DNA of 64,000 nt, taken from NCBI GenBank assembly GCA_028279595.1, contig JANQNK010000001.1:69016-133015 (forward strand), read 5' to 3'. Origin of the DNA: Thermoplasmatota archaeon (lineage in GTDB: Archaea; Thermoplasmatota; JAKEGO01). The notes under the pieces were generated by a model. That model made no database searches, was not told where the DNA came from, and saw nothing but the letters and a program-made list of their open reading frames with translations. The position numbers were made by a program, and so were the translations under genes. Below, one piece after another: positions 280-48,989 of the stretch (position 1 is its first letter; each line of letters begins with the position of its first letter).

Positions 280-1568
280 ACGAGCACCTCCTTCAGGGCG
301 GCACCGAACCTCTCTATATCGGCCGCCGTGTGCTTTTCAGTGGTCGCTACCAGGATGTGGTCCGCAAGCCCCGATCCGTCAAGGTCGATCCCTGGAAGGA
401 CACCTCTGTTCAGCATCTCGGCGCTGAACTCATCGAAAGGCATTGGAAGTCTGACCGTGAATTCGTTAAAATGATGGCCGTCGAAGGCTGGTTCGATCCC
501 GACAGCCTTGAACTGCTCCTCCAGGAGCGCCCTGTTGTCGAGGCACCTCTCGGCGATGTCCACCAGCCCCGGTCCGACGACGCTCAGGTACGCGGTCCCC
601 ATGACGGCGCAGAGGCCGTGGTTCGTGCAGATGTTCGATGTCGCCCGGTGGCGTCGGATATGCTGCTCCCTCGTCTGGAGGGTCATCGTGAAGGCCCGGT
701 TCCCGTCGGAGTTCTGGGTCATGGCTATCAGCCGCCCGGGCATCTGCCTGACATGCTTCTTCGTCGAAGCCATGACACCCAGGAGAGGGCCGCCGAACCC
801 CATCGGGATCCCGAGGGGCTGGCCCTCTGCGACGACGATATCGGCGCCGTACCCTCCCGGAGCCTTCAGCACTCCGAGGGATATCGGGTTCACGCCCACG
901 ATGAGGACGTCGACCTTCTCGCGAATTGCGTCCAGTTTATCCTCGATGACCCCGAAATAGTTGGGTGTCTCGACGTACATGATCCCGCCTTCGGGAACAC
1001 CGTCCAGATCGAGAGTACCCATCGTCCGGTCGTACGGGACCTTTTCAATGGAGATACCTGCTGTGTCCGAGTAATTGTGAAGTACTGACACCTTCCAAGG
1101 CGCGATCGCCTCTGGTATATGAACGACGTCGCCCCTCGAGATCCTCGCGGCCATCCGCACGGCCTCGCCCAGGGCCGTGGCGCCGTCGTACATGGAAGCG
1201 TTCACGACGTCCATCTTCAGCAGCCTGGCCAGGAGGCTCTGGTACTCGAATATGGCCTGGAGCATCCCCTGGCTCATCTCGGGCTGGTACGGTGTGTATG
1301 CTGAGAGGAACTCCGCCCTCGACGCGATCTCCATGACCGCAGGCGGGATGTGGTGGTCGTAGACGCCGCCTCCGAGGAACGAAAGGAGCGGCCCGACCGG
1401 CGTGTTCAGCGATGCCAGGTCCTCGAGATGTCTGTGGAGGTCCACCTCGGCCATCGGGCCGGGAAGGTCCAATCCGGCCCTGACGTCCTCCGGGACGTCC
1501 GAGAAGAGCTCCGATATGTCGGATACGCCGACCGCCTCGAGCATGGCCCTGACATCTTCCTGCGTCAT
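276..1568 (-). CDS. gcvPA: glycine dehydrogenase (decarboxylating) subunit 1
   Basis: ORF 276..1688. The homology-consistent start is the internal Met at 1568 ([15 protein letters not shown]), which leaves a gap to tmk. Conserved GcvPA blocks present: [39 protein letters not shown]. Confidence 0.9.
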
Positions 1569-1617
1569 CGCGTCACCTATGTGTTGGTAGATGAGGATTT
1601 CACGGAAAAGGTTTGCC

Positions 1618-2196
1618 CTAGTCCTCGAGCATCTCGAGGACGACCTCCTCGGCCTTCCCGAGGACGGTCTCGATGGGCTTCCCCGCATCTATGGACACTG
1701 TGTTCCGTGGCAGGATCTCGTCGAAGACGGCCTTAACCTTGCGGAGGAACTCGGTGTCCTCGAACCTGTCGTGGTTCTTTAGGCGCGAGACTCCTATGTC
1801 CGGCGGGACCTCGAGGTGGATGACCGCGTCGGCGTCCGGCGCGAAACCGTTTATGAACCTCAGGAAGGCCATGTCCACGCCCTCCGCCCCCTGGTATGCC
1901 AGGGACGAGTAGAGGTAGCGGTCGGTGACGACCCACTTGCCCTGCTCAAGAGCCGGCATCACGACGTTCTGGACATGTCCGTGCCTGTCGGCAGCGAACA
2001 GCAGGGCTCTCTGATATGGAGTCAGTTCGAGCTTCCCGAGGCTCTTGCGGATGACGTCTCCGATGGGACCCTTCGTCGGTTCCTGGGTGAGTACGACCTC
2101 GATCCCGCGGTCTACCAAGAAATCGTGTATGTACTTTGCGACGGTCGTCTTCCCCGATCCGTCTATTCCCTCAATCGCCAGGAACGCTCCCGTCAT
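1618..2196 (-). CDS. tmk: thymidylate kinase
   Basis: P-loop EGIDGSGKTT, LTQEPT and VTDRYLYSSLAYQ blocks typical of dTMP kinase. TAG stop. Confidence 0.9.
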   Translation of the reverse strand: MTGAFLAIEGIDGSGKTTVAKYIHDFLVDRGIEVVLTQEPTKGPIGDVIRKSLGKLELTPYQRALLFAADRHGHVQNVVMPALEQGKWVVTDRYLYSSLAYQGAEGVDMAFLRFINGFAPDADAVIHLEVPPDIGVSRLKNHDRFEDTEFLRKVKAVFDEILPRNTVSIDAGKPIETVLGKAEEVVLEMLED

Positions 2197-2857
2197 CGCT
2201 CTCCCCCTCCCTGTCGATCATCGACATGAACTTCGACGGGACCTCGTCCGTCAGGTAGACCACCGTCCCGGCCTGGCAGATGACGATCTCGTCCTCCATG
2301 GCCGATCTCGCGTCGATCTCGATGATTATCGGCGATCCTTCCCTGTGGCGTCCGGCCTCCATCGCCTGCTCGTACGTCTTGCTGAGGTGGACGAACTTCC
2401 TGTCCGTCGGCTTCAGGCCGGTCTCGAACAGCAGTTCGACCTCCTCCGCCGTGGTCGGATAGAAAAGGGAGTCCGGCACGGTATCGGTCGGGTGGTCAAG
2501 CTCGAGATCGATGGTGTGCCCGTAGGTCGCCCTGATCTCGTTCCCGTCGATCTGGTAGCGCCCCTTCGGGTCGGTCTCGACTATCGCCCTCAGGTGATGC
2601 GGCTTGAGCCAGTGAAGCGTTATCCTGTGGTCCCGGACCGACTCGACGAGCTCGTCGATGTTCGCCCATCCGTTCTCGCTGAGCTCGATGTCGAACTTCT
2701 CCGGGAAATGACGGAGAACGCCGGCCATTATCCTTCCGAGATGCCCGAGCTCCTCCCCGGACATGAGGTATCGCCCGTCGCTGCCGCACGCTGTGCAGGT
2801 CTTTCCGCGGAAATAACCGTGCTCCTCGCATCTACGCAATGCTGGTTCCTCTGTCAT
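2171..2857 (-). CDS. kptA: RNA 2'-phosphotransferase (Tpt1/KptA family) with a Cys/His-rich N-terminal knuckle
   Basis: Tpt1 core blocks present (LSENGWANIDELV, ETDPKGRYQ, IRATYGHT, FVHLS). N-terminal CEEHGYFRGKTCTAC. 26-nt overlap with the tmk start. Confidence 0.85.
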   Translation of the reverse strand: MTEEPALRRCEEHGYFRGKTCTACGSDGRYLMSGEELGHLGRIMAGVLRHFPEKFDIELSENGWANIDELVESVRDHRITLHWLKPHHLRAIVETDPKGRYQIDGNEIRATYGHTIDLELDHPTDTVPDSLFYPTTAEEVELLFETGLKPTDRKFVHLSKTYEQAMEAGRHREGSPIIIEIDARSAMEDEIVICQAGTVVYLTDEVPSKFMSMIDREGESDDGSVPGD

Positions 2858-2949
2858 ACGATTCCATTCATCCTCTGCATGGTATAAAAAGATGGTCCTT
2901 TTCGGTACCAGAACGTCCCCTTTTTAATCGATAACGCATATCGTCGTCC

Positions 2950-3273
2950 ATGCCCCAACGCCGGGGAAGGCGCGGGCGCAGGACCAAGGAGACAGTCGAT
3001 CTCGTCAAGCGGCGGATAAGGCGTCTCTTCGACCTCGCCGACGCTGAGGCCAAGGCAGGCAACGCCGGGCTCGCCGACAGGTACATGGCGATGGCGAGGA
3101 AGCTGAGCACGAGGTACAACGTCCGGATCCCGCGTAGCATGAAGAGGCGGATGTGTCCCGATTGCCAGGCCTACCTGATGATCGGGGATGCGGCAACCTA
3201 CAGGGTCCGAAGGGGGCGGGTCATCGTGCACTGCCAGAGGTGCGGGGCGACCATCAGACGGCCCTACAAGTGA
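2950..3273 (+). CDS. rnp4: RNase P protein component 4 (Rpr2/Rpp21 family)
   Basis: Basic helical N-terminus (RIRRLFDLADAE...ADRYMAMARKLSTRYNVRIP) followed by a CPDC...CQRCG zinc ribbon, the Rpp21 architecture. Divergent from kptA. Confidence 0.8.
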   Translation: MPQRRGRRGRRTKETVDLVKRRIRRLFDLADAEAKAGNAGLADRYMAMARKLSTRYNVRIPRSMKRRMCPDCQAYLMIGDAATYRVRRGRVIVHCQRCGATIRRPYK

Positions 3274-3302
3274 TTGTCAAGAGTCTTCAGAAATCTATTA
3301 GT
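3272..3302 (+). promoter_or_regulatory. conserved upstream element GATTGTCAAG-N4-TTCAG-N3-CTATTA (promoter of surface-protein paralog 1)
   Basis: Near-identical element repeated at 4945-4976 upstream of the paralogous gene. The CTATTA(A/G) TATA-like part lies about 35 nt before each ATG. Confidence 0.55.
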
Positions 3303-3334
3303 GTGAGTAACTGCCCTCACGTATTGGGGGTATT

Positions 3335-4921
3335 ATGTTTATCCGTATGAGGGTCCTGGGCATCGGGCTGCTGCTCGCGATATCTGTTCTCACGTTATTT
3401 ACCGGCGCTTCGGAAGCGACCGTCGATGTCGGATATATCGATGTCATCGGAGGAGCACAGATCATCGATCAGGACGAGATCGCCGAGTACGACGTCTCGA
3501 TGGATGTCGAGGTGACGAACGGTTCAGCAGATGTTTCCGCGACGATATCGGAGGCCACCGACGGCTGGACCGCATGGGTCGACGAAGGCGGGAACGAGAT
3601 CACATGGACAGGTGTTAACGAATCCGGATACCTCAACTTCACCCTTTACGTACAGCCTCCCGAAAGGGCAGGCTCGGAAGCGCTCGTCCTCGACATATGG
3701 GCGAACTCGACGGATGGAAAGGACGAGGCGACATCGCTGTCGACGTTCGTCAATGGCCATTCGATAGAGGTGACCTTTCCGGCAGACTCGATCAAGGTCA
3801 GTCCCGAGGAGGGAGAAAATATCGAGACGGTCCAGTTCGAGGTAGAGAACACCGGCGATTCTCCCGACGACATCAAGGTGACCGTGGATCAGGACCCCGG
3901 TCCAAACCCGGGCAATCTCGATTGGGTCGATATCTCCTACGAAGAGCTCACCGGTCTCGGTCCGGACCATACGATCCAGGACATGAAGACAGATGTCATC
4001 GAGCTCGTGCATGTCGAGTTCGACGTCGGAAGTGTTCCGATCGATGCAGCCACTGGAAATTACACCTACATGATAACTTTCGACTGCGTCCCCGGCAATC
4101 CCGAGGATCCAGGGATAATCTTCACCCATTACCTTACGCTCGTGGTCGACAGGGTCGCCGGAATGTACGTCGAGTTAAACGAGACCCAGGCAGAGATCGA
4201 CGTCGGCGCGCATATCACCGATGACCACGCCCTCGTGGACATCATGGTCCAGAACTCGGGCAACTTCAACGACACGTTCAAGGTACAGACGTTCGCGACC
4301 TCCGCCGATGTCGACATCTCCTTCGACGACAGGGGTGACCCCGCCGAATTCGCCATGCGATCGGGACTGACGCGGACCATTCAAATGAAGATTACCGTGG
4401 ACCCGAGGACCCGGGGGGGAATCGAGGAGTTCGTCATCAGGATATCCTCTGCCGAGGGCGGGTTCGTCAACGAGACCGATTTCAATCTTACAGTGCTGGG
4501 ACCGGACATCCGGTTCACGAAACATGACATTCAAATGGTAAATCCTGAACCGGGAACAGGGGAGGACAAGGTGTTTCGAGTCCGCGTATGGAACAATGGA
4601 ACCTCGCCCGCCACGGACCTCAAGATCAGCTACTACCAGGGAGGCATCCTGAAAGGGAACTACACCATCGACTTCCTCAGGAACGGCAGGTACGAGGACG
4701 TCATCTTCGATTGGGACGGCAAGGACAGGTCCCGGTGCAGGTTCCAGACCGAGGGTGCAATGCCCGAGGAGCTCAATATCAGGTTTGATTTCGTACGTGC
4801 TCCGGAAGAAGAGATCAAGAGAGACCAGCTGGGTGCCTTACTCCAGATCGCAGCCGTCGGCATCATCGCTGGCGTCGTGGTGATGCTGTACTACCACCAC
4901 TACCTGAGCTGGAGGTTCTGA
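3335..4921 (+). CDS. surface (glyco)protein: signal peptide, CARDB/COG1470-like beta domains, C-terminal TM anchor
   Basis: N-terminal hydrophobic signal (VLGIGLLLAISVLTLFTGA). Repeated F.VEN.G....D beta-sandwich motifs and a CARDB-like VRVWNNGTSPATDL block. Many N-x-S/T sequons. C-terminal TM AAVGIIAGVVVMLYY. Paralog of 5008..6651. Confidence 0.7.
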   Translation: MFIRMRVLGIGLLLAISVLTLFTGASEATVDVGYIDVIGGAQIIDQDEIAEYDVSMDVEVTNGSADVSATISEATDGWTAWVDEGGNEITWTGVNESGYLNFTLYVQPPERAGSEALVLDIWANSTDGKDEATSLSTFVNGHSIEVTFPADSIKVSPEEGENIETVQFEVENTGDSPDDIKVTVDQDPGPNPGNLDWVDISYEELTGLGPDHTIQDMKTDVIELVHVEFDVGSVPIDAATGNYTYMITFDCVPGNPEDPGIIFTHYLTLVVDRVAGMYVELNETQAEIDVGAHITDDHALVDIMVQNSGNFNDTFKVQTFATSADVDISFDDRGDPAEFAMRSGLTRTIQMKITVDPRTRGGIEEFVIRISSAEGGFVNETDFNLTVLGPDIRFTKHDIQMVNPEPGTGEDKVFRVRVWNNGTSPATDLKISYYQGGILKGNYTIDFLRNGRYEDVIFDWDGKDRSRCRFQTEGAMPEELNIRFDFVRAPEEEIKRDQLGALLQIAAVGIIAGVVVMLYYHHYLSWRF

Positions 4922-4976: not shown

Positions 4977-5007
4977 GCATGAGAATTCCTATTTTCTAGG
5001 GATCAGT

Positions 5008-6651
5008 ATGCGTGTCTGTTGGCGAATCGCGTTTGGTTTGATGTCGATCTTAATCCTTGTTACGTTCCTTACTGGAGCGACCGAGGGTAGTGTCGATGTC
5101 ACAGGTATCGATGTCGAAAAAGGAACAATTTGGATAGGATCGCACGAGGTCGCGACCTTCAACGTCACCATCAACATCACAGCCGACGGCGGAGAGGCCG
5201 ACATCTACGTCAACCTCTCGGACGAGCTGGCCGGATGGAGCTCATGGGTCGAAGGATCCGATGACTCCCACGTCTTTGAGAACGTCAGCACGACCCAGCA
5301 GATAATATTCAACGTGATCGTCGACCCCGACTCCGAGGCCGAGGAGGACGACCAGAGCACCACCGACATCTCGGTCCAGTCCTCGAACGGGACGAACAGG
5401 TTGAGGACCGTCAAGACAAAGATCAGAGGGTATTCAATATCTGTCGCATTTCCCACGAACAAAACGAAGGTAAGCCCTGTGGAGGGGGACAATAACGAGA
5501 CACTACAGTTCGATGTAGAGAACACGGGCGATGGACCGGACGACATCGAGATCAGGATATCAGAGACGCCTGGCCTCGAGGGCTCGGACATCGAGCCTGG
5601 TGAACTCAATTGGATCAGCTCCATAGGCCCATTTGACGACAAAGCGAACGGAACTTCCTACCTTTTCGAAGACCTGGAGGCCAATACTCCTCAGACGGTA
5701 TTCCTGGAGTTCGACGTTGGCACAATACCCGTCGATGCCGAGGCTGGTGAATATTCCTTCATGGTGCACATAGAATCGAAGGGAGCAGCTCATGGGGATC
5801 CCGATGCAAACGAGTATGTCAATATCACGTTGGAGATCGAAAAGGTAGCCGGTTTCGAATGGACCATGGACATGGATGATGGAGAGATCGACCCCACCGG
5901 TCTCGACAAACAGGATGAAATCGATGTACCAATAACCATTCACAACCAGGGTAACTTCGATGATGCATACAAGGTCGAGACCGTGGGTCTTTCCCCTGAC
6001 GTTGATGTGATCTTCGGATGGCATGATACAAATCCCGCAACATTTAATATCGATTCAGATCAGGAAGCGGTAGTAACGATGGTGATTACAGTTGATGAGG
6101 ACATACTCGAGGGTTGGAACAATTTCACTGTTCGAATATCCTCTTCGGATGCTAGTTCTGAGACAAGAAAATTCAATCTATCCATCCTTGCCCCCGACAT
6201 CAAGATCGCCGACAATGACATCACACTTTCCGAAAACGTTACGGACATTGAGGAGAATGACGATGTCCTCGTTCACGTCCGCATTTGGAACAACGGTTCA
6301 GGTCCAGTAGAGGATCTCGTGATCAACTTCATCGTTGGTAGTACATGGGTGGACAACGTCACGATCGAGGAAATCGGAGCTGATCGGTGGGAAGACATTG
6401 ATTTCAACTGGACCATCGGGAACACCACCGACCAGACGATAAAGATCCAGACGGACGGTGCCAAACCGGACGAACTGAACGTCATCAAGACCTTCAGCTT
6501 CCCAAAGATCGTTGAGGAAGAGCCAGAAACCCCTGAGGACGACGAGGAAGACAAGGGAGGATTGACGGCGACACAGGCCGGGGTCGCTGGACTGCTGGTC
6601 ATCGTTGTAGTGGTCGTGGCACTGTTCTTCCTGATGCAGAGGAAGAAGTAG
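5008..6651 (+). CDS. surface (glyco)protein, tandem paralog of 3335..4921
   Basis: Same architecture and collinear motifs (VAFPTNKTKVSPVEGDNNETLQFDVENTGDGPDDIE vs VTFPADSIKVSPEEGENIETVQFEVENTGDSPDDIK; VHVRIWNNGSGPVEDL). C-terminal acidic linker, TM segment and RKK tail. Confidence 0.7.
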   Translation: MRVCWRIAFGLMSILILVTFLTGATEGSVDVTGIDVEKGTIWIGSHEVATFNVTINITADGGEADIYVNLSDELAGWSSWVEGSDDSHVFENVSTTQQIIFNVIVDPDSEAEEDDQSTTDISVQSSNGTNRLRTVKTKIRGYSISVAFPTNKTKVSPVEGDNNETLQFDVENTGDGPDDIEIRISETPGLEGSDIEPGELNWISSIGPFDDKANGTSYLFEDLEANTPQTVFLEFDVGTIPVDAEAGEYSFMVHIESKGAAHGDPDANEYVNITLEIEKVAGFEWTMDMDDGEIDPTGLDKQDEIDVPITIHNQGNFDDAYKVETVGLSPDVDVIFGWHDTNPATFNIDSDQEAVVTMVITVDEDILEGWNNFTVRISSSDASSETRKFNLSILAPDIKIADNDITLSENVTDIEENDDVLVHVRIWNNGSGPVEDLVINFIVGSTWVDNVTIEEIGADRWEDIDFNWTIGNTTDQTIKIQTDGAKPDELNVIKTFSFPKIVEEEPETPEDDEEDKGGLTATQAGVAGLLVIVVVVVALFFLMQRKK

Positions 6652-6653
6652 TA

Positions 6654-7688
6654 TCAATCTCCGAAGACACCCTTGATCTCATCCGCCTTCAGAACACCCT
6701 TCTCGGTGATGAAGCCAGTGATATACCTCGCAGGAGTGACGTCAAATGCCGGATTGCGGGCCACTGCGCCCTCCGGACCGACTCGCAAGCCTCCCCACTC
6801 CAGTACTTCGTCCTGAGACCGCTCCTCGATTGGAATGGCGTCTCCGGATTCGGCGGTGGGATCGAACGTCGTCGCGGGAGCGGCGATGTAGAATGGGATA
6901 CCATTCTCATGTGCAACGACAGCCTTCTCGTAGGTACCGATCTTGTTAGCGGCATCGCCGTTCATCGCGATCCTGTCGGCACCAGTTATTACCATGTCGA
7001 CCTCGCCCCGGGACATGAAGTGTCCCGCAGCGTTGTCCACGATTATCGCGTTGGGTATCCCTTCCATCCTGAGCTCCCAGGCCGTCAATCTGGCACCCTG
7101 GTAACGGGGCCGGGTCTCGTCGACGAAGACATAGGGCTTCTTGCCATGGTAATGGGCGAACCTTATCGGTGCGAGCGCCGTTCCCCAGTAAACGGTAGCT
7201 AAAGCCCCGGCGTTGCAATGAGTGAGTATCTTCATATCCTTCGAGATCAGCTCGGCACCGGTCTCTCCGATGGTCCTGCAGGCCTCCTCGATCTCAGAAG
7301 CGTAATCTATCGCTGCCGCAACGGGGTCCTTCCCCGATGTCCAGACGTCAGCTATCCTGTCGACCGCGGTGAAGAGGTCCTTCGCAGTTGGACGGCTCGC
7401 TTCGAGCTTCTCTTTGGCTTTATCCATGTCAACGCCATTGACGTATGCAAGTGCCATTCCGTAGGCTGCGGCGATACCGATGGCGGGAGCTCCCCTGACC
7501 ACCATATCGGTTATGCTGGCCGCAAGCTTATCGACGCTGTGGATATTCTCGAAGACGAAGTCGTGCGGCAGCATCCTCTGGTCGAGCATGACGATGTGGT
7601 CGTCCTTCCACTCAACTGCCAAGGGGACCTTCTGCTCGGGAGCCGTCATGGTGATGTGAACGGTCTGGCGATACTTTACACTAACCAT
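6654..7688 (-). CDS. mtnA: methylthioribose-1-phosphate isomerase family protein (eIF-2B alpha/beta/delta-like)
   Basis: MLDQRMLP, MVVRGAPAIGIAAAYG, THCNAGALAT, VDETRPRYQGARLTAWEL and GADRIAMNGDAANKIGTY blocks. The exact substrate (MTR-1-P or a ribose bisphosphate) is not decidable from sequence alone. Confidence 0.8.
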   Translation of the reverse strand: MVSVKYRQTVHITMTAPEQKVPLAVEWKDDHIVMLDQRMLPHDFVFENIHSVDKLAASITDMVVRGAPAIGIAAAYGMALAYVNGVDMDKAKEKLEASRPTAKDLFTAVDRIADVWTSGKDPVAAAIDYASEIEEACRTIGETGAELISKDMKILTHCNAGALATVYWGTALAPIRFAHYHGKKPYVFVDETRPRYQGARLTAWELRMEGIPNAIIVDNAAGHFMSRGEVDMVITGADRIAMNGDAANKIGTYEKAVVAHENGIPFYIAAPATTFDPTAESGDAIPIEERSQDEVLEWGGLRVGPEGAVARNPAFDVTPARYITGFITEKGVLKADEIKGVFGD

Positions 7689-7726
7689 GGCAACGCTTTT
7701 CTATAACTCAGACCTACACGAAAGAG

Positions 7727-10496: not shown

Positions 10497-11279
10497 ATGT
10501 TGAGGCCCAGGCCGACCACCATTCTCCAGAGGAAGGGCGAAGGCAAGGACATGGTCACGTTCACCCTGGACTACAGGGTCAAGGCCAAGCCGGGGAACTT
10601 CCTGATGATCTGGCTCCCCTACGACAGCAATGGTGAGAGGAACGACGAGATATCCGACGAGGTCCCGATGAGCATATCGAAGATCCGGAAAGCGAACCTG
10701 TCGTTCACCGTCAAGGCCGTCGGCCCGACCACTAGCGAAATGATCAAATTGAAGCCAGGCGACAAGGTGGGCGTCTCCGGTCCGTTCGGGAACAACTTCT
10801 CGGTGGAGGAGCGCAAGTCCTTGCTCGTCGGTGGCGGCGTCGGCACGGCACCGCTTATGCCAGTATATCGGCGAATGGTCGCCAGGGGCATAGATCACAA
10901 GTTCATAATCGGCGGAGCCACACGGGAGGACATCCCGTACCTGACCGTCCTTCGGGCCCAGGAGGACACCCACGTCTCGACGGAGGACGGCTCCCTCGGG
11001 ACCCACGGGAACGTGCTCCACGTAATGGAGGATTTCGAACTCGCGGACTTCGACGTCCTGTACAGCTGCGGTCCCATGCCCATGCTCAGGGCGATCTGGG
11101 ATATCGTCAAGGACATCGACATAGACGTCGAGATGAGCCTGGAGTCCTATCTCAGGTGCGGCCGCGGCCTCTGCGGCTCGTGCGCCAGGGGCAAGTACAG
11201 GATCTGCAAAGAGGGGCCTGTCTTTAACAGGAAGATGCTGGAGGAGGTAGGATTCCCGAAACCGGTAAGCGAAGAGTGA
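10497..11279 (+). CDS. PyrK-like FAD/NAD(P)-binding oxidoreductase with C-terminal 2Fe-2S cluster (dihydroorotate dehydrogenase electron-transfer subunit family)
   Basis: KPGNFLMIW, PGDKVGVSGPFGN, LVGGGVGTAPL and the C-terminal CGRGLCGSCA...C cluster motif. TATA-like CTTATATA about 25 nt upstream of the ATG. No pyrD or gltD partner in the window. Confidence 0.75.
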   Translation: MLRPRPTTILQRKGEGKDMVTFTLDYRVKAKPGNFLMIWLPYDSNGERNDEISDEVPMSISKIRKANLSFTVKAVGPTTSEMIKLKPGDKVGVSGPFGNNFSVEERKSLLVGGGVGTAPLMPVYRRMVARGIDHKFIIGGATREDIPYLTVLRAQEDTHVSTEDGSLGTHGNVLHVMEDFELADFDVLYSCGPMPMLRAIWDIVKDIDIDVEMSLESYLRCGRGLCGSCARGKYRICKEGPVFNRKMLEEVGFPKPVSEE

Positions 11280-11683
11280 GGAAGGGCAAGAAGAAGGAAG
11301 GCCCCTACGGTCTCCCGATGGTCCTCGCCAGAAAGGTTCCGGTCAGGGTTCCGGTCAAGACCGAGGTCCAGGACGACGAGACCGTTGTACTGATCTATCC
11401 GAAGGTATTCACCCGTCTGGAAGGCTGGATATTCCGTCGCGTCGGAGGGGTCTCCGACATCCGCAGACCGCTCGACGAGATGGGCACGGACATCTGGAAC
11501 CTCTGCGACGGTGAACACAACGTCGGAGAGATCTGCAAGATCATGCACGAGAAGTACGGGGAGGACCTCGAGCCTGTAGCACCCCGTTGCTGGACCTTCG
11601 TCAAGATGCTCTCGGACAGGAACCTCGTGCTCATCCTCCACAAGAAGGTCCCCCTGGAGAAGAAGGAGGAGAATGATGAGTGA
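11276..11683 (+). CDS. PqqD-family (RiPP-recognition-element-like) protein
   Basis: LDEMGTDIWNLCDGEHNVGEICKIMHEKYGEDLEPVAPRCWTFVKMLSDRNLV matches the PqqD pattern. GTGA overlap with the upstream gene; ATG at 11318 is an alternative start. Confidence 0.65.
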   Translation: MRKGKKKEGPYGLPMVLARKVPVRVPVKTEVQDDETVVLIYPKVFTRLEGWIFRRVGGVSDIRRPLDEMGTDIWNLCDGEHNVGEICKIMHEKYGEDLEPVAPRCWTFVKMLSDRNLVLILHKKVPLEKKEENDE

Positions 11684-11837
11684 GGAGGAGACGGTTCTCC
11701 TGTGTCCTCACTGTCTGAAGTCCAATCTGAAGGTCGTCGGCGGTTTCATGGGGACTCAATACCTCTGCAAGGATTGTGGGTATCAGGGTGCCTTGATCCT
11801 CGAGGTCGACGAGAAGGATGTTCCAGATCAGGATTGA
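11673..11837 (+). CDS. 54-aa zinc-ribbon protein (not in ORF track)
   Basis: MMSEEETVLLCPHCLKSNLKVVGGFMGTQYLCKDCGYQGALILEVDEKDVPDQD, with CxxC-x17-CxxC. The ATG overlaps the PqqD-like stop by 11 nt, suggesting translational coupling. Confidence 0.5.
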   Translation: MMSEEETVLLCPHCLKSNLKVVGGFMGTQYLCKDCGYQGALILEVDEKDVPDQD

Positions 11838-14425
11838 AGCTGTTTTAATTGGTCAGAGTATTGTTTCAATCTTCGCTTATCTCCACTTATAGAATAGAGG
11901 TTACATTTCTCTTCGAAAACTAGTTCAAGTGCTTTTTCATCATTAAGCTCACGAGCAATCTCTTCACCCATATTAAGAAATCGCTCTGCTATCTGATAAT
12001 CTCCTCTCATTGCGTAAAATGACCCATAACCAACCTTTGAATATATGAATCCTGAGGCAAAATGGACGTTGTAAAAGGTTCTCGTACTCTCCTTTAGATA
12101 TTCTAATGCCTTAGAAAAATCGCTTGATTCAATATAAACGCTGGCCAAATTATATTGCATTACTGCAGTTAACCGATAGTTACCTGTTGATAATCCTATC
12201 TCAATCCCGCGAATCCAATTTCGTTTCGCAGAATGCAAATCACCCTGTCTGTAATATAAACGTCCAACATAGTTCAATGCCTCTGCAAGATTGTATAATG
12301 CCCCTTCCTCTTCGAAAATTCGTGCAGCTTCAAGTGCACAATTGAGGTTTTCGTCAGTTATGAAACTTCTTGCCATCAGGACCTTTCCCTCAAGAATATT
12401 ATCCTTCTCTCCTTTTGCGAGAACAATGGCTTCTTTAAAGGCATCTTCACCTTGATCCTTCTTCCCCAATCGTGTGAACGCTTTCCCCTTCCAATGTAAC
12501 GCCTCTGCCCTATTCATAGGAGTAACAAATTCATTGTCAACTATTATTTCATCCATCATAGCAATACATTTGTCAAATTGCCCCTCGTAATAATATCCAC
12601 GTCCAATGATCATTTTACCCTTATATTTGAACTTATCATATTCGGATAGACTGTTGGACTCGATACTTTTAATAATTTCTTTAGTTTCATGATATTCTCC
12701 TAAGGATAAATGTGTTTCTAATCTGAATATATTGAAACGAGATAACCACTCAAGATCAATAACATCAACAAAATTCTCGATTATCTCCTGTATTTCACCC
12801 ACATATCCGTATTCAATAAATCGCGGTAAGAATTCATTTAACAATTCTATACCTTTTGAAAAGGATTTTCCATACATGTAGTGATAAAATGCTTCAACCT
12901 GATCTTCGAATCGAGATTCAGATAATGATTTAGCTGCTTCTATGTGAAGATCTCTCCTCATTGACTCAGGAATTCCTTCATAAATAACTCCACGAATCAT
13001 ATCGTGAAGAGCTATTTCACTACCTGTTTCAGCGATTAAAGATAGTGAAATTAATCGGAATAATATATCAATATCTTCTTCCGTTCTTGTAATTAAATCA
13101 ATGCTAATTGGTTTTCTATAAACTGCAACTTTACGGAGAAATGAACGCAAATCCGGAGAGAGATTATTCATAATCTCATCTTTTACATACGTTGATAAAT
13201 TCGAAGCCCCATCGAGTCCATCTGTCCCCCCTATTAGATCGATGGCAAGCGGATGGCCCCCAGTCACTTGATAGATTGTTGGATAATGAGAAGGATCAAT
13301 AATCCCTCTCTCCTCTAGCAGAGACTTCATTGAGGTGTAATCAATGCCACCAAGATGCATCTCATAAACCTTTTTTTCTGCGATCACGTCTTTTTGACCA
13401 TAGAATTCCGGACTCAACCTAGAAAGAACGCACATATGAAGGTCATCGGAACTCGATACAATTGTGAATATCATACTGATAAGTCGTTTGGTATCCTCAT
13501 TCGCTTTTTGATAGTCGTCGAATACGATAATAACATTTTCTCCGCTGAGATCTTCAGAAATAATTTGATGTACCTCCCAGAGGTCAAAGTGCTGTATCCC
13601 ATCTACATCTCCGTCGTGTAATCCAGCCTTGAGATAATCCATGAGTCGAGCCTTATTAATATCATTTAGAAACTTCGATAGGACGACTAATATACTTCGT
13701 GCAGAGTCCCATTCATGTATCGGGTAATAAATCGTTTCATAACCATAATAGGTGGATAAAAAACTCGATATTAATGACGTTTTCCCCATTCCAGGAAGGC
13801 CAATTATTACTATTGTGTTAGGTCCATTATCGATGAGATCTTCAAGGAGTCCCAACTCATTCTCACGCCCAACAATTTTGATTTCAGGTAAAGAAATATG
13901 GTGATTGATACGGCCAATTTCATCTATGACGGATTTTAAAGATATATTCTCAATAAGGTCTCCTTCAGTAACGATATTAGAGAATACTTTCTCAAACCTA
14001 ATAAAAAATTCAAATGTAGGAATTTCCGCTCCATATATCCTGTAAATCTGAGAAAAAGTCATGTGCTCTAGTGTTCCATCTTTTAATATTTGGAATTCCT
14101 CGTTATTTACTCTGGACGCGACTTCGTTCGCTACTGTATACCCTTCTGTTGATAAGAAATATACAAATCGAACGCGGCGCCCCCCCTCAATATTTGACTT
14201 TTTTTGCTCCACAAGGTTCATATGACGCAACTCTTTCAAAGCCCTTGAAGCATGATTCCATCGAATGCCGACCGATTCTGCAATACCTTCTTGGGTGATA
14301 TCATGAGGAAGACTTTTTACCACAAACTCCGCATCCATATCTATGGGGTCCAACATATTATCGATCGGGAAATCCAAGAGGAAGAACAAGACACGGTCCT
14401 TTACCGTTAGCTCTTCGAATGTCAT
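11828..14425 (-). CDS. STAND NTPase: N-terminal wHTH, NB-ARC-type ATPase, C-terminal TPR array (STAND-1)
   Basis: wHTH ITQEGIAESVGIRWNHASRALKELRHMNLVEQ. Walker A GLPGMGKTS, Walker B IIVFDDYQ, NB-ARC GxP motif TGGHPLAI. About 350 aa of TPR-like repeats. Gene is AT-rich. TATA-like TTTTATATATTAAAAG upstream of the ATG. Confidence 0.8.
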   Translation of the reverse strand: MTFEELTVKDRVLFFLLDFPIDNMLDPIDMDAEFVVKSLPHDITQEGIAESVGIRWNHASRALKELRHMNLVEQKKSNIEGGRRVRFVYFLSTEGYTVANEVASRVNNEEFQILKDGTLEHMTFSQIYRIYGAEIPTFEFFIRFEKVFSNIVTEGDLIENISLKSVIDEIGRINHHISLPEIKIVGRENELGLLEDLIDNGPNTIVIIGLPGMGKTSLISSFLSTYYGYETIYYPIHEWDSARSILVVLSKFLNDINKARLMDYLKAGLHDGDVDGIQHFDLWEVHQIISEDLSGENVIIVFDDYQKANEDTKRLISMIFTIVSSSDDLHMCVLSRLSPEFYGQKDVIAEKKVYEMHLGGIDYTSMKSLLEERGIIDPSHYPTIYQVTGGHPLAIDLIGGTDGLDGASNLSTYVKDEIMNNLSPDLRSFLRKVAVYRKPISIDLITRTEEDIDILFRLISLSLIAETGSEIALHDMIRGVIYEGIPESMRRDLHIEAAKSLSESRFEDQVEAFYHYMYGKSFSKGIELLNEFLPRFIEYGYVGEIQEIIENFVDVIDLEWLSRFNIFRLETHLSLGEYHETKEIIKSIESNSLSEYDKFKYKGKMIIGRGYYYEGQFDKCIAMMDEIIVDNEFVTPMNRAEALHWKGKAFTRLGKKDQGEDAFKEAIVLAKGEKDNILEGKVLMARSFITDENLNCALEAARIFEEEGALYNLAEALNYVGRLYYRQGDLHSAKRNWIRGIEIGLSTGNYRLTAVMQYNLASVYIESSDFSKALEYLKESTRTFYNVHFASGFIYSKVGYGSFYAMRGDYQIAERFLNMGEEIARELNDEKALELVFEEKCNLYSISGDKRRLKQYSDQLKQLQS

Positions 14426-14573
14426 GATTGCTGTATGTTTCTTTTAATATATAAAATTTCCTTAAGTAAGATATAAATTACGCTATGTAATTTAGTACAA
14501 GCCGAAACACCGCATTTTCCTATCCAGATAATAGATTTTTCGACCTTTGGGGGGGGGAGGAGGTGTAAGACAT

Positions 14574-14636
14574 ATGCCAGGAAAGTATGGACTACTCGTA
14601 AGAATGGAAAGCTTGAAAGAGATCGGGAGGAACTGA
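14574..14636 (+). CDS. micro-ORF A, 20 aa (MPGKYGLLVRMESLKEIGRN)
   Basis: Preceded by a G9 run plus GGAGGAGGTG SD, 8 nt before the ATG. Paralogous to micro-ORF B, with conserved residues encoded by different synonymous codons. Its stop overlaps the SD of the next gene. Confidence 0.5.
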   Translation: MPGKYGLLVRMESLKEIGRN

Positions 14637-14649
14637 GGGGGTTTTGCTT

Positions 14650-15345
14650 ATGAATGGTAGAATACTCGCTACTATAGCATTGACCAGCCTCCTTGTGTTG
14701 TCGTTGACTGTGATCGCGACGCCGCCCGAGGCGAAGAGGTGGGCGCTCATTGTGGCGCCTGAGCATGAAGGTGGAACGGTATACGAGGATGCCCTCGATA
14801 TGTACGACTATCTGAAGGATGAGGGATGGACCGATGATGAGATTATCTTCCTGACCGATGGATCCGAGGAGAGTTTCGTTGATGGTGACGCATCGGCTGA
14901 AGAGATATACGCAGCTTTCAGTCATCTTGCATTAAACGTCAATTCCATCGACACTGTTGTGATTGTCTTAGGTGACAATGGGGCATTCGGAACTGAAGAT
15001 TTCTATCTCATCTCATCTGACGATATTCAGATCTCGAGTTGGGATATTGGTCTTCAGCTTGACGCAATAAATACCCAGGATATGGCTGTTGTTGTCTCGT
15101 TTGACTATTCCGGTGGCTTCATCGACAACCTCGCGGGCAACGACCGTCTGGTACTAACCAGCCACGGTATTGAGTCCACGTCAAGCAACGCCTACAATCT
15201 TGCGGATGGTCTGACAGAAGAGGATGCAGACGCGAACGAAGATGGTGTCGTCTCATTCGAAGAGGCACATAGCTGGGTAGCTGAAGAGATCAGTGGACAG
15301 TCTCCCCAGATAAGTGACAACATCTACGGAGAATTCACGATCTGA
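14650..15345 (+). CDS. secreted legumain/peptidase-C13-fold protein lacking catalytic His and Cys (pseudo-peptidase)
   Basis: Signal-like N-terminus ILATIALTSLLVLSLTVIA. KRWALIVA...YDYLKDEGWTDDEIIFLTD aligns by eye to legumain KHWVVIVAG...IPDEQIVVMMYDD. VIVLGDNGAFG sits at the FTDHGSTG position and VVVSFDYSGGF at the YIEACESGS position. The protein has no Cys. EF-hand-like DANEDGVVSFEEA near the C-terminus. SD GAGGGGG 8 nt upstream of ATG 14650; the ORF track uses TTG 14644. Confidence 0.7.
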   Translation: MNGRILATIALTSLLVLSLTVIATPPEAKRWALIVAPEHEGGTVYEDALDMYDYLKDEGWTDDEIIFLTDGSEESFVDGDASAEEIYAAFSHLALNVNSIDTVVIVLGDNGAFGTEDFYLISSDDIQISSWDIGLQLDAINTQDMAVVVSFDYSGGFIDNLAGNDRLVLTSHGIESTSSNAYNLADGLTEEDADANEDGVVSFEEAHSWVAEEISGQSPQISDNIYGEFTI

Positions 15346-15351
15346 GGTGAT

Positions 15352-15417
15352 ATGGTGAAGGGTAAGTATTCACATCTCGTGCATGCTGAGACTCTGAAGG
15401 AACTCGGCCTCAAGTGA
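15352..15417 (+). CDS. micro-ORF B, 21 aa (MVKGKYSHLVHAETLKELGLK)
   Basis: SD GAGGTGAT overlaps the stop of the C13-like gene. Paralog of micro-ORF A. Its stop lies inside the convergent hairpin shared with STAND-2. Confidence 0.5.
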   Translation: MVKGKYSHLVHAETLKELGLK

Positions 15418-15422
15418 GGCCG
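15405..15422. terminator. 7-bp stem / 4-nt loop hairpin containing the stop codons of both convergent genes
   Basis: cggcctc aagt gaggccg. Perfect stem, T-rich run follows on the plus strand. Confidence 0.45.
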
Positions 15423-27056: not shown

Positions 27057-28952
27057 TTACGCTCGACCGATCTTGGCCAATCCCTTCGTGGCCTTGACGT
27101 CGTTCGGGTCCTTGGTCAGTGCCTCGCGGTAGCACTTCTCGGCCTTGTCATGGTCGTTGAGCTGGCGGTAGGCGAACCCGAGGCTGGTCCAGAGCCTGAC
27201 ATTGTCCTCGTCAGATTTCAGCAGGACCTCGTACAGGCCGATGGCATCGAGGTAGTTGCCAGCGAGGAGCTTTCTGTCGGCGGCCTTCCTGTCGAAGATC
27301 CTCATGGTCTCCTCTGGGACGCTGTCCGCCGCTGTGGGCTTCGCGTCTGTTGGGATGACCTTCTTGGGTCTTGGTGGTGCCTTCGTTGGCCTCGGCTTCG
27401 GAGCCACTGCCGGGACACCCATCTTCGCCTTCACGCGCTTCCTCCTCTCCTTCGGAGCCCTTACTTCCACGTCCAGCTCATCTTGCGCTGGCGACTCCAA
27501 CGCCCTGACCTCGGCCAGGCATGCGTCGCGGCCCGCACGGAATTTCGGCTCGTCCCGGTCGAGGATCATCGCCCTCTCGTATGCGATCACCGCCTCCTCG
27601 TAACGGTTCAGCGCACGCAGTGCGATGGCCTTGTTGTTCCAGAAATGCGGATTGTCGGGATCGATCGTAAGCGCCCTCTCGAAGAGGACCAGGGCCTCAT
27701 CGTACCTGTCCTGTCTGAACAGCTCGTTCCCCGACTCCTTGAGCTTGTCGGCCTCCTCGTTGAGGTACTGCATGAACTGCTTCTTGTCTATCTTCTCGAG
27801 CCTCGCCTGGACCGCCTTCTCCGTGGATAGTCCACGGGCCATGTCGGGGATGTACGGCGACTGTTCCACCAGTCCCTCGGAGATCGATCTGGCGTATATG
27901 TAAAGGGCAGCGTATCCGACCAGGGAAATGGACGAGATAAGGAAGATGAGGACCCCGATCGGACGTAGGTAGAACACGGTGGAACGGAGGCTCACCTCGG
28001 CGGGCTCATCCTCCAGGCTGACGATTATTATGGTATAGCGTCCGGGATAGAGGCCCTTGTCCAGCTCGATGTTCGATCCGGTCCCGAACACCACCGGGTC
28101 CTCCCCCGCCCACCTGTAAACGACAACCTCCGTGTGGGCGACGATCTCGTCCCCGAAGAGCAGTACCCGGTAGGAACCCTGGGCCAGTGATACGAATCCT
28201 GTCACGTCCCCGGTGTCATCCCAGTAGACAGTGCAGTTGTCCCTGAAGTCGGGATCGTTCCAGAGCGCTCCAAGCCCGAGTTCGTTGACGAAATGCAGGT
28301 AGGTCGTCTCGTCGACGACGCACATGTCCACAGCCCCCTCGCTCGTGAGCCCGAACCTCCAGGTCTCCGTCGTGTTCCTGACGACCATGTTCACGACATT
28401 CATCGGGTCGTTGGACGGGAACCCTTCGAAAACGTTCTCGATCCCCGATGGGATCTCGATGATCTCATCCTCCTCGTAGGGAATGACGTACAGGTCGAAC
28501 TTCTGGTCCGACTCGAGCTCTATCGCCACTTCCTGTCTGAAGGTCGGTATCCCGAGGACCCAGAAGCTCATCTCGCCGTAGACCGGTGGATTGATGGTCT
28601 CCTTGTGCTCCGACGGGGTAGTCATCTGGGTCATGATGAGGAGGGGCGAGACGATGAGCATCATCACGACGATGACGAGGACCACGGAACGGGAGCGTCC
28701 CAGGAACTGGCGCGTCCTTATCCTTGCCAGGAGCGGCACCTCCTTCATCATGAGGTTGAGCTCCTCTCGAAGGAATATGAAGCCCTCGAAGACGGCGATC
28801 ACTAGGAAGATCGTCACTGCCCCGAACTTGGCCGCCTGGTCCATGGGCTTCATGATCATCTCGAGGATGAAGAAGAGGAGGAGCGTCTGTAGGATTAGGA
28901 GGAGAATGAATCCCTTCCTGAAGCTCCGGACCCCTCTCGGCATCTCCGTCAC
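27057..28952 (-). CDS. membrane protein with extracytoplasmic domain and two cytoplasmic TPR blocks
   Basis: N-terminal TMs, a middle domain of about 230 aa, another TM, then TPR repeats (GNELFRQDRYDEALVLFERALTIDPDNP...) separated by a Pro/Lys-rich linker. Confidence 0.7.
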   Translation of the reverse strand: MTEMPRGVRSFRKGFILLLILQTLLLFFILEMIMKPMDQAAKFGAVTIFLVIAVFEGFIFLREELNLMMKEVPLLARIRTRQFLGRSRSVVLVIVVMMLIVSPLLIMTQMTTPSEHKETINPPVYGEMSFWVLGIPTFRQEVAIELESDQKFDLYVIPYEEDEIIEIPSGIENVFEGFPSNDPMNVVNMVVRNTTETWRFGLTSEGAVDMCVVDETTYLHFVNELGLGALWNDPDFRDNCTVYWDDTGDVTGFVSLAQGSYRVLLFGDEIVAHTEVVVYRWAGEDPVVFGTGSNIELDKGLYPGRYTIIIVSLEDEPAEVSLRSTVFYLRPIGVLIFLISSISLVGYAALYIYARSISEGLVEQSPYIPDMARGLSTEKAVQARLEKIDKKQFMQYLNEEADKLKESGNELFRQDRYDEALVLFERALTIDPDNPHFWNNKAIALRALNRYEEAVIAYERAMILDRDEPKFRAGRDACLAEVRALESPAQDELDVEVRAPKERRKRVKAKMGVPAVAPKPRPTKAPPRPKKVIPTDAKPTAADSVPEETMRIFDRKAADRKLLAGNYLDAIGLYEVLLKSDEDNVRLWTSLGFAYRQLNDHDKAEKCYREALTKDPNDVKATKGLAKIGRA

Positions 28953-38092: not shown

Positions 38093-38315
38093 GTCAACGT
38101 CGAGGCATTGCAACGTCCTTATTTAAGCGAATAGGTATTAATCGGGAATTCCCGGGACCTCGGCCCCCTCTCAATTGATATAAAGGAAGCCCTTCCGGGG
38201 GGTAGAATTCCACGGGCACCGGCGGTCGGCGGGCGGACTCCCTGGCACATGCCTGGAATCGCCGTTATGGGAACATTTATTAATCCCCCGTACCATCACA
38301 ACCGGGGGTTATCCC

Positions 38316-47791: not shown

Positions 47792-48745
47792 TCACCTCGC
47801 TCCGTTGAAATGGTCTCTCACTCTAGCTAGGACGGCCTCCACGGCCTCCTCGATCATGTTATCGGGGGCGTTCAATCCAGCGGCTCCGGCGTGGCCTCCC
47901 CCCCAGCCGCCGACGTCCTTTCCGACCTCCTCCAGGATCATCCCCAGATGGAGGTCGCCGTCGACGACCTCGGGCCTCGCCCTGGCGCTTATCCTGCCGC
48001 CGCCGTTCTTCTTGTTCGAGGAAACGATCGCGACGTCGGCTCCGGCGTGGATCAGTATCCTGGCGGCGCCGCCCTCGTAGGCGGATATCCGGGACATCGC
48101 GATGACCCTGTCACCCTCCCTCTCGACCCTGGTCCTCTGGAGTGTCCGAAGGAGCGCTATCCTCCTCGACACATCGAAGTAGTGGTCGGTCTCCACCAGT
48201 GCGAGCGCACCGGTGATGTCGCCTCCCGCGTCCATGAGGTCGGCCGCGGTCCTGAGCGATCCCGCGTCCGCGAACCGGAACCGCGCCGTGTCGGCGAGGA
48301 TCCCGGCCAGTGCTATCCTAGAGTCCTCTGGCGAGAGCGTGACATCCATCTCGTCAAGTATCCTGAGGACGACCTCGACGCATGACGGTCTGTCCTCGTC
48401 CTGGATGTGGACGGCGTCCTTCCACCCGTCCTGAGGGCGGTGGTGGTCTATCACGAGGTCGGGGGTGATGGTCCTGTCCGGCGTCAGCATCTCGGGAGTG
48501 CTCGCATCGACCACGACGATGACCTCGTAGCCATCCGGGTCCGGGTCGATGGTGTAATCGATACCCAGGTTCGCGGCCATCTCCTTTGCCGTGTTCCCGA
48601 GGTCGCCGAACGAACCGATGGTGCTATCCTCGAATATCCGTGAGATGAGCCACGCGCTCGCCAGCGCATCTGGGTCTGCCTGGGTGTGCATGAGCACTAG
48701 CGCAGGACCCTTCCCGGTCAGTTCGCGGACCCTCTCCACGTCCAT
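47792..48745 (-). CDS. DHH/DHHA1 phosphoesterase (NrnA-like)
   Basis: HTQADPDALAS, VVVDAS, DHHRP and GGGHAGAAG motifs. Start at internal Met MDVERVRELTG. Confidence 0.8.
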   Translation of the reverse strand: MDVERVRELTGKGPALVLMHTQADPDALASAWLISRIFEDSTIGSFGDLGNTAKEMAANLGIDYTIDPDPDGYEVIVVVDASTPEMLTPDRTITPDLVIDHHRPQDGWKDAVHIQDEDRPSCVEVVLRILDEMDVTLSPEDSRIALAGILADTARFRFADAGSLRTAADLMDAGGDITGALALVETDHYFDVSRRIALLRTLQRTRVEREGDRVIAMSRISAYEGGAARILIHAGADVAIVSSNKKNGGGRISARARPEVVDGDLHLGMILEEVGKDVGGWGGGHAGAAGLNAPDNMIEEAVEAVLARVRDHFNGAR

Positions 48746-48989
48746 CGCCCCGATATTCAGGAGGACTCTACTTAAACGTAATTGCAGGAAGCCCTCATCA
48801 AGCAAGGAATTCGCCCCTGGATCCCCGGTCTGGGACCCCTGCCTCTCCCCCAATCTTAAAATATGGTACCGTGATACGGGATGGAGGGATAGATTGGGAC
48901 AGGTCCGTAGATCTAGCTACCGCCAGCCGCCAACCCCCGAGGGACTCAAGAAGATCGAGGACGGGACGCTCGAGCACTTCGACATCGAG

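Follow-up and report, generated by a model that had tools for sequence, protein, structure and literature searches.

Two conserved short peptide genes bracket a predicted pseudo-peptidase gene between STAND-TPR regulator genes in Thermoplasmatota-type archaea

The subject of this work is a five-gene locus in a Thermoplasmatota archaeon (GCA_028279595.1, contig JANQNK010000001.1, positions 69,016-133,015 of the forward strand), in which two genes of about 20 codons, here called pepA and pepB, lie on either side of a gene for a legumain-like protein. We refer to the whole 64,000-nucleotide (nt) stretch that was analyzed as the window and give coordinates as window positions unless a related locus is named; sequence and translation were checked over 14300-15700. 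On the plus strand, pepA (14574-14636, product MPGKYGLLVRMESLKEIGRN) is followed by a gene for a 231-amino acid (aa) protein with an EF-hand-like DxNxDG loop (14650-15345) and then by pepB (15352-15417, product MVKGKYSHLVHAETLKELGLK, 21 codons when read from the ATG at 15352); both peptide genes are recognized from the sequence and from their orthologues. On the minus strand, S1 (11828-14425) encodes an 865-aa regulator with a predicted winged helix-turn-helix (wHTH), a STAND NTPase (NOD), and a C-terminal tetratricopeptide repeat (TPR) region, and S2 (15410-18229) encodes a 939-aa regulator with a predicted wHTH, a STAND NTPase, and a TPR region. S1 is divergent from pepA, which lies 148 nt from the S1 start, and S2 is convergent with the plus-strand genes, with its last 8 nt overlapping pepB. 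Comparison with the related loci described below shows that S1 (divergent), pepA, the middle gene, pepB, and S2 (convergent) make up a conserved module, so far only in Thermoplasmatota-type archaea. From spacing and conservation, we infer that pepA, the middle gene, and pepB form a three-cistron unit. Neither pepA nor pepB is covered by an annotated gene in any of the loci that we retrieved, micro-ORFs (open reading frames) of 20 codons being of a size that escapes gene callers, and NCBIfam has a curated name for no protein of the module.

An initial annotation of this DNA, made from the letters alone, had proposed both micro-ORFs at these positions, each with a strong Shine-Dalgarno sequence (SD) of its own, and this is what we find in the sequence and its translation. 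The pepA SD, GGAGGTG at 14559-14565, follows a run of nine G residues at 14549-14557, so that the two together occupy 14549-14565 of the plus strand, and the pepB SD is GAGGTGAT at 15344-15351. The overlaps between stop codons and SDs that had been described are likewise present. The TGA of pepA runs into GGGGG, and the middle gene begins 13 nt later with the ATG at 14650; GAGGTGAT in turn shares nucleotides with the stop codon of that gene (15343-15345). In the related loci, which we designate by L numbers, the pepA SD is kept in L001, L004, L006 (GAGGTGA), and L016 (AAGGTGGTGA), and TGAGGTGAT within the pepB SD is invariant across the window, L001, L004, and L005; pepB of L006 is preceded by GAGGTGATCC. 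The tight translational coupling that the annotation read from these overlaps holds for pepB and the middle-gene stop codon in the window clade but not in L006, where pepB lies 130 nt downstream. The start codon of the pepB orthologues aligns with the GTG at 15355, and the spacing from this GTG to GAGG is 7 nt, as in the orthologues, whereas it is only 4 nt from the ATG at 15352. The pepB start is therefore probably GTG 15355, with the 20-aa product MKGKYSHLVHAETLKELGLK, and with this start both peptides are 20 aa long and align without the one-codon offset that had been used before. Read-through of the middle-gene TGA into pepB was considered and rejected, as the two are in frame in the window, L001, and L005 but out of frame in L004 (11-nt spacer) and L006 (130 nt).

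As originally proposed, 11 of 20 aligned residues of pepA and pepB are identical (M, G, K, Y, L, V, E, L, K, E, G), and seven of these identities are written with different codons (GGA/GGT, GTA/GTG, GAA/GAG, TTG/CTG, AAA/AAG, GAG/GAA, and GGG/GGC). When the Met is left out, the two peptides share 10 of 19 residues with an ungapped BLOSUM62 score of 47, and none of 20,000 shuffles reaches this similarity (maximum of 8 identities and score of 35; z = 7.9). A window-wide control with 536 small ORFs of 15-40 aa gave 12 pairs with at least 11 raw identities, and the best 8 of those 12 are low-complexity R/S/P-rich minus-strand frames of up to 40 aa. Because 12 other pairs reach at least 11 identities, raw identity is not decisive here; what is decisive is conservation across lineages.

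The middle protein has four relatives among 5.8 billion clustered proteins, at 86, 68, 65, and 54% identity, and the DNA around three of the four (L001-3, L004, and L005) carries the small ORFs in every flank that is present. In L001-3, pepA is MPGKYGLLVRLESLKEIGRTEGVWK (5927-6004 of L001) and pepB is MKGKYSHLVHSESMKELGLR. In L004, pepA is MPGKYGLLVRIESLKEIGRA (138-200) and pepB begins MKGKYSHLVHSETMKEI and is cut by the contig end; L005 does not cover pepA and has MKGKYSHLVHSESMKELGLR as pepB. We widened the middle-protein family by a profile search of 1.84 billion representatives, and retrieval of related loci with seven family sequences gave one genome locus, L006, and none in the metagenome collection. 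L006 is from a Thermoplasmatota metagenome-assembled genome (MAG), its middle protein is 43% identical, and it has the same five-part layout, namely a minus-strand STAND gene (868-3519), a pepA-like small ORF (3895-3963, MLGKYANLVRYESMKEIENRFF, SD GAGGTGA), the C13-like gene (3980-4699), a pepB-like small ORF with a TTG start (4830-4898, LGKNSGLIRFESLKEVNDRKL, SD GAGGTGATCC), and a second minus-strand STAND gene (4979-7690). A third lineage, L016 (about 44% identity), has a pepA-like small ORF, MRKEKHNGLIRGESLKEIERKWW, with the SD AAGGTGGTGA directly before its C13-like gene. L016 has neither pepB nor S1, and its C13-like gene overlaps the 3′ end of the S2 orthologue by 15 nt. Even with the identity of the middle protein down to 43-54%, the small ORFs, their start codons, and their SDs are kept in the window, L001-3, L004, L005, L006, and L016.

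The initial annotation had also asked whether the peptide frame stays intact beside C13-like or STAND genes. We searched the window and all 18 loci, translated in six frames, with a hidden Markov model (HMM) of the peptides and found them in the window clade, L006, and L016. Matches occur only in these loci, with E values of 1e-11 to 1e-14 and of 8e-6 for L016, the next best match having E = 4.8, and all of these loci have STAND genes of the S1/S2 type next to the C13-like gene. The peptide consensus is M-x-G-K-[YN]-x-x-L-[VI]-[RH]-x-E-[ST]-[LM]-K-E-[ILV], in which residues 3-17 form the conserved core; the C-terminal tails differ in both sequence and length (GRA, GRTEGVWK, ENRFF, and ERKWW). 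A degenerate DNA pattern for the core had 0 matches in the genome and metagenome contig collections, a result of little weight since the collections do not hold the genomes of the retrieved JGI loci and missed these too. When the pattern was relaxed and applied to viral contigs, it gave one match (L015) inside a longer unrelated ORF, which we judged to be chance.

More distant C13-like relatives (about 29% identity; L007-L014, from other Thermoplasmatota MAGs) lie in a different operon, for example at 2843-5287 of L013, where a 456-aa wHTH-TPR protein without an NTPase is followed by the C13-like gene and then by a Cys-rich (CxxC...CxxC) protein of 113-124 aa that belongs to no Pfam family. 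There is no peptide small ORF in this operon, and seven loci of the more distant clades have no peptide HMM match. Across the loci compared, the pseudo-peptidase thus accompanies wHTH/TPR regulators as a rule, and the peptides are found only with regulators of the S1/S2 STAND type.

Substitution patterns bear on whether the two micro-ORFs are genes or nucleotide elements. We computed the proportions of synonymous (pS) and nonsynonymous (pN) differences by the method of Nei and Gojobori (NG86) between the window and L004, and obtained pS 0.76 and pN 0.28 for the middle gene, pS 0.77 and pN 0.08 for pepB, and pS 0.24 and pN 0.02 for pepA. Over the pepA orthologues, pN is 0.02-0.03, and between the paralogues pepA and pepB, pS is 0.90 and pN 0.35. 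In the window clade, the numbers of variable columns at first, second, and third codon positions are 4, 0, and 10 for pepB and 1, 0, and 5 for pepA. Selection on the peptide, which had been argued from the synonymous differences between the two ORFs, is borne out, with pepB synonymous sites saturated while its peptide is conserved and with variation falling at third positions. Covarying RNA structure, named beforehand as a finding that would speak for conservation at the nucleotide level, was looked for and not found, as Rfam had nothing near threshold and RNAalifold on five pepA regions gave a consensus of -0.26 kcal/mol with four pairs and no conserved structure. From these comparisons, we conclude that pepA and pepB are real protein-coding genes for an undescribed family of peptides of about 20 residues that is under purifying selection. 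pepA has in addition a deficit of synonymous change, with three changes in about 12 sites against the 0.76 expected (binomial probability of about 3e-4), and its synonymous sites do vary at greater depth, in L006 and L016. An overlapping 5′ element is a possible cause; neither an RNA structure nor an Rfam family accounts for the synonymous conservation of pepA.

One property that had been predicted for the peptides was not supported. An amphipathic helix had been proposed for both, and the helical hydrophobic moment (muH at 100 degrees) of five peptide types is 0.07-0.27, a value that 38-92% of shuffles equal or exceed. The accompanying statement that neither peptide has a signal sequence is correct, as pepA and pepB have no hydrophobic h-region. 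The peptides are 20-23 aa long with no pro-region, and they have a mean hydrophobicity of -0.04 to -0.43 and a net charge of +1 to +3.

S1 and S2 had both been read as STAND proteins with TPR repeats, and Pfam agrees. S1 matches AAA_16 (2.2e-11), ATPase_2 (2.4e-9), TPR_12 (1e-11), and HTH_Crp_2 (6.7e-5), and S2 matches TPR_12 (1.1e-27), ATPase_2 (6e-12), AAA_16 (1.6e-10), and TPR_MalT (1.6e-10); matches to the NODs of S1 and S2 include NB-ARC. The Walker A and B motifs are GLPGMGKTS and IIVFDD in S1 and GIAGIGKSS and LLIFDD in S2. The wHTH matches of the two proteins are sub-threshold (HTH_Crp_2, 6.7e-5 and 4.3e-3; Sta1/Lrs14, 3e-4 to 9e-4). The N-terminal region is conserved across all S1 and S2 proteins, and the recognition-helix region is nearly alike in S1 and S2 (W-x-H-x-SRALKE). 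S1 and S2 are paralogous, with 27% identity. The S1 orthologues at the same position are 67% (L001) and 25% (L006) identical and the S2 orthologues 82% (L001), 38% (L006), and 32% (L016), and by this measure S2 is the conserved partner and S1 evolves fast. Alignment with the S2 orthologues sets in only at about residue 27-42 of the 939-aa ORF, and the true start of S2 may be an internal Met (M30, M36, or M45) and not the ATG at 18229.

Residues 217-555 of S2 match residues 7-320 of PH0952 (6mfv) with E 1.1e-20. PH0952 of Pyrococcus horikoshii, a homologue of MalT, is described as a predicted transcription factor whose DNA-binding effector is N-terminal and whose sensor consists of TPRs. For the PH0952/MalT class of STAND proteins, the primary site for the inducer is said to lie in the sensor; maltotriose is sensed by MalT, and PH0952 has no known inducer (PMC6468293). 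The domain order of this class, a wHTH effector followed by the NOD and an arm/TPR sensor, is that of S1 and S2 with their predicted wHTH, and the Walker A and B motifs are intact. No member of the class is tied to a genetically linked peptide in the papers that we found. The TPR region of S2 also matches peptide-binding TPR proteins (RapF, 2e-7; GPSM2, 3e-15; and RNPP_C of Pfam at 0.005), TPR-to-TPR sequence matches of this sort being generic.

For the middle protein, an AlphaFold2 model built with 23 sequences had a predicted local distance difference test score (pLDDT) of 87.3, and Foldseek with this model found metacaspase 9 (E 3.9e-8, query TM-score 0.67), legumain (query TM-score 0.63-0.67), and also MALT1 and GPI8. 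Searching the PDB with the family profile gave metacaspase at 1.3e-7 and legumain at 5e-4. The window protein itself has no Pfam match, even at E <= 10, and does not reach the gathering score of PF01650; its relatives do reach Peptidase_C13 (PF01650), in 6/20 close members and at 30-66 bits in multidomain relatives. The protein has zero cysteines, and Asn110 aligns with the metacaspase His of S-G-H-G, while Asp152 would stand at the Cys position of the D-x-C-H-S-G / E-A-C-E-S-G motif. With no cysteine and no catalytic His-Cys dyad, the middle protein is a pseudo-peptidase, and the label of inactive legumain-like protein that it had been given is essentially right. The fold is common to the clan CD peptidases (legumain C13, metacaspase C14, and GPI8), but unlike these the middle protein has no dyad, is small at 231 aa, and has the EF-hand-like loop. 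In the model, residues 5-18 form a hydrophobic N-terminal helix that corresponds to a signal or anchor, and multidomain relatives carry extracellular modules. On this evidence, the most fitting description of the protein is a clan-CD pseudo-peptidase that is secreted or anchored in the membrane. None of ten multidomain relatives has a Rosetta-stone fusion of the C13-like domain to STAND or TPR domains, and extracellular domains are found instead. In L005 (an 857-bp contig), a MetallophosN-like N-terminus replaces the signal sequence of the C13-like homologue P0005 (22-765), with pepB intact downstream; this altered N-terminus may be an assembly chimera or a domain swap.

The DNA around these genes also holds several candidate cis elements. 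An AT-rich palindromic TATA-like element, TTTAATATATAAAA, at 14443-14456 is also present in L001 and, being about 20-30 nt upstream of the S1 start codon, is a candidate promoter for a putative leaderless S1 transcript. A perfect inverted repeat, TAAATTAC-N5-GTAATTTA, at 14474-14494 lies 80-100 nt upstream of pepA, and its core TTAC..TGTAA is invariant in the window, L001, and L004 while the surrounding DNA diverges; we regard it as a candidate operator for the wHTH domains of S1 and S2. L006 and L016 have different inverted repeats at a similar distance. At the other end of the operon, the GC-rich hairpin TCGGCCTCAAGTGAGGCCGG at 15404-15423, with an 8-bp stem, spans the stop codons of pepB on the plus strand and S2 on the minus strand, is kept in L001 and L005, and, as a terminator-like match, may be a bidirectional terminator. 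The run of nine G residues at 14549-14557 sits between a TATA-like ATAATAGA (14528-14535) and the pepA SD, and it is broken in L001 (GGGGTGGGG) and L004 (GGGGGCAGAGG). This tract could be a slippage-prone promoter or 5′ untranslated region element.

In Firmicutes and their phages, RRNPP systems (Rap-Phr, NprR-NprX, PlcR-PapR, Rgg-SHP, and AimR-AimP) pair a short peptide with a receptor that has no NTPase and whose HTH or phosphatase domain is joined directly to a peptide-binding TPR domain. Their propeptides carry a secretion signal or are of the hydrophobic leaderless SHP type, mature to a shorter form, and bind the TPR groove to switch the receptor. The locus described here resembles these systems in that a very short peptide gene is linked to a gene for a predicted DNA-binding TPR regulator, a linkage kept in L001, L006, and L016, and in that the cassettes are duplicated as peptide/receptor pairs; the TPR region of S2 weakly matches Rap proteins. 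It differs in its archaeal host, in the STAND NTPase placed between wHTH and TPR, in a receptor size of about 900 aa as against 300-400 aa, in peptides with no signal sequence or pro-region, in having no Opp system in the module, and in peptide genes that lie in an operon with a secreted pseudo-peptidase and not directly downstream of the receptor. Since the receptor has an NTPase and the peptides have no secretion signal, the locus departs from RRNPP in two defining features, receptor architecture and peptide secretion signals. RRNPP peptide/TPR-receptor pairs are nevertheless a candidate for the closest functional likeness, here with STAND receptors and leaderless peptides in archaea. pepA and pepB also resemble the staphylococcal phenol-soluble modulins and leader peptides such as TnaC and ErmCL in having about 20 codons, an SD of their own, paralogous copies in one predicted transcription unit, and no signal peptide. 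However, they are not amphipathic or hydrophobic as the modulins are, and unlike leader and arrest peptides, their conserved part is not C-terminal and pepB has no downstream gene, while pepA fits by position. In the literature that we searched, which was incomplete, no paper dealt with peptide-linked STAND regulators or archaeal peptide signaling.

The explanation that we tentatively favor, at somewhat less than an even chance and from gene neighborhood, is that pepA and pepB act as ligands for the TPR sensors in an autoregulatory circuit, a peptide-receptor switch. We favor it because the numbers of peptide and STAND genes match (2:2 in the window clade, 2:2 in L006, and 1:1 in L016), because the module ends at the two STAND genes, and because the role of the TPR region as sensor is established in this class. 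Having no export signal, the two peptides would be synthesized in the cytoplasm along with the pseudo-peptidase. Their targets would be the TPR sensor domains of the two STAND transcription factors of the PH0952/MalT type, the probable pairing being pepA with the universally retained S2 and pepB with S1. Peptide binding would favor or block the inducer-dependent opening and multimerization of the NOD, that is, the switch from the ADP-closed to the ATP-open state. The wHTH domains would then act on the intergenic region shared by S1 and pepA, where 14474-14494 is the candidate operator, so that the operon would feed back on its own expression via two peptides with a surface pseudo-peptidase as its output. 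It would be a larger claim that pepA and pepB are the first genetically encoded archaeal peptide signals, sensed via STAND TPR domains in a communication or decision circuit that arose independently of RRNPP, and that they thereby reveal the long-missing inducer class of the PH0952-type archaeal STAND regulators; this we consider quite unlikely.

Several observations weigh against the peptides being sensor ligands. Only three deep lineages are known, so the correlation of gene counts is statistically weak, and peptides transcribed together with a secreted protein could just as well have a role linked to it. As noted, the matches of the S2 TPR region are generic, and the lineages have unlike candidate operators in spite of similar recognition helices. 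L014 is an exception to the association, with a distant STAND gene beside its C13-like gene and no peptide, and the pepA pS of 0.24 hints at an additional role at the nucleotide level.

The peptides may instead be partners or ligands of the pseudo-peptidase, whether in a vestigial substrate groove, as small subunits, or as chaperones, with the STAND proteins merely regulating the operon. Their genes invariably lie in line with the C13-like gene, at close spacing or overlapping it, and its clan-CD fold is confirmed; such folds are generally known to bind extended peptides, and pseudo-enzymes often keep binding. pepA of the window also ends in Asn, the P1 preference of legumains, but this residue is not conserved, the other tails being GRA, GRTEGVWK, ENRFF, and ERKWW. 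There is also a mismatch of compartment, as the protein has a signal or anchor and the family has extracellular domains, whereas the peptides have no hydrophobic signal. Most C13-like relatives have no peptides, and L016 drops pepB together with S1 but retains the C13-like gene. On balance, we consider this explanation unlikely. A cell-to-cell signal of the RRNPP/SHP type, in which the peptides would undergo export with no classical leader, accumulation outside the cell, perhaps surface holding or trimming near the pseudo-peptidase, re-import through an oligopeptide transporter, and TPR binding, would share the cassette logic of a short peptide gene beside a cytoplasmic HTH/TPR receptor in duplicated pairs, and the co-expressed protein is predicted to be extracellular. 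An OPT oligopeptide transporter gene (5701-7632 of L016) lies about 460 nt from the S2 orthologue, and the window has an OPT gene (48591-51008, 805 aa) and an M50 site-2-type peptidase gene (36701-38113), but the conserved module contains no exporter or transporter, the window OPT gene is 33 kb off, and the OPT and M50 genes lie 20-33 kb from the module. The peptides are, moreover, hydrophilic with no pro-region, and the literature searched holds no archaeal peptide-based quorum sensing, so that such a signal seems to us rather improbable.

It would also be conceivable that the ORFs act only in cis, with coupling, re-initiation, or stalling at pepA setting pseudo-peptidase expression, with pepB governing read-through into S2 antisense, and with no function in trans. 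The pepA stop codon either overlaps the next start codon or precedes it by 13-16 nt (ATGA in L001, 16 nt in L006, TAGAGATG in L016), pepB overlaps the S2 3′ end by 8 nt with a hairpin at its stop codon, and pepA has extra conservation at the nucleotide level, all of which are in keeping with such a role. Yet the same peptide motif occurs in two paralogues with quite different downstream contexts, there is no same-strand gene downstream of pepB, and in L006 pepB is separated from S2 by 80 nt and from the C13-like stop codon by 130 nt. The conserved N-terminal and middle region with a variable tail is also the reverse of what is generally known for the stalling peptides TnaC, ErmCL, and SecM, and on these grounds a purely cis-acting role strikes us as very unlikely. 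We attach the least probability, amounting to a very remote chance, to the micro-ORFs being untranslated conserved DNA or RNA elements (operator, leader, or terminator) or leaderless antimicrobial peptides similar to phenol-soluble modulins. Near invariance of pepA at the nucleotide level within the window clade would suit an untranslated element, but pepB has saturated synonymous sites with a conserved peptide, the variation has a three-base periodicity, the SD and start codon are kept in all lineages, and there is no RNA structure or family. A net charge of +1 to +3 would suit an antimicrobial peptide, but the hydrophobic moment is not above that of shuffles and the mean hydrophobicity is negative.

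If the peptides are inducers or anti-inducers of S1 and S2, they provide a testable ligand-receptor pair for archaeal STAND transcription factors. In that case, they would be the first candidate for peptide-based regulation or signaling in Archaea. Even if the ligand idea fails, pepA and pepB are a new small-protein family tied to a secreted pseudo-protease. The peptide pair passes the tests that sequence alone allows, having conservation across deep lineages, selection at the peptide level, and dedicated ribosome-binding sites.

Outside S1 and S2, the genes differ among the window, L001, L006, and L016, and we therefore take S1 and S2 as the boundaries of the module. A reading of the module as a defense system was considered and rejected, as PADLOC had no meaningful match for S1, S2, or the middle protein, and tblastn of pepA and the middle protein against the PLSDB plasmids gave no match. 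Adjoining the S1 3′ end, 10497-11837 encodes a PyrK-like FAD/NAD(P) FeS protein (260 aa), a PqqD-like protein (135 aa), and a 54-codon ORF, which are kept in L001/L003 and not in L006 or L016 and so lie outside the module. The PqqD-like peptide-chaperone gene (11276-11683) had been considered as a part of the module and was rejected, being kept in L001 but absent from L006 and L016. Just past S2, 18804-20402 encodes a 532-aa P-loop ATPase that is not conserved in L001, with weak ORC-CDC6-like matches, a match to the Sll1717 family at 2.7e-12, and a match to an "anti-phage protein" model at 4.6e-9 that is far below the cutoff of that model. Farther away, the window encodes a separate 631-aa TPR protein (27057-28952) and an 1869-aa FG-GAP/He_PIG/Big_9 surface protein (55414-61023), and surface proteins with He_PIG or Big domains are also found near the distant C13-like loci L009, L012, and L013.

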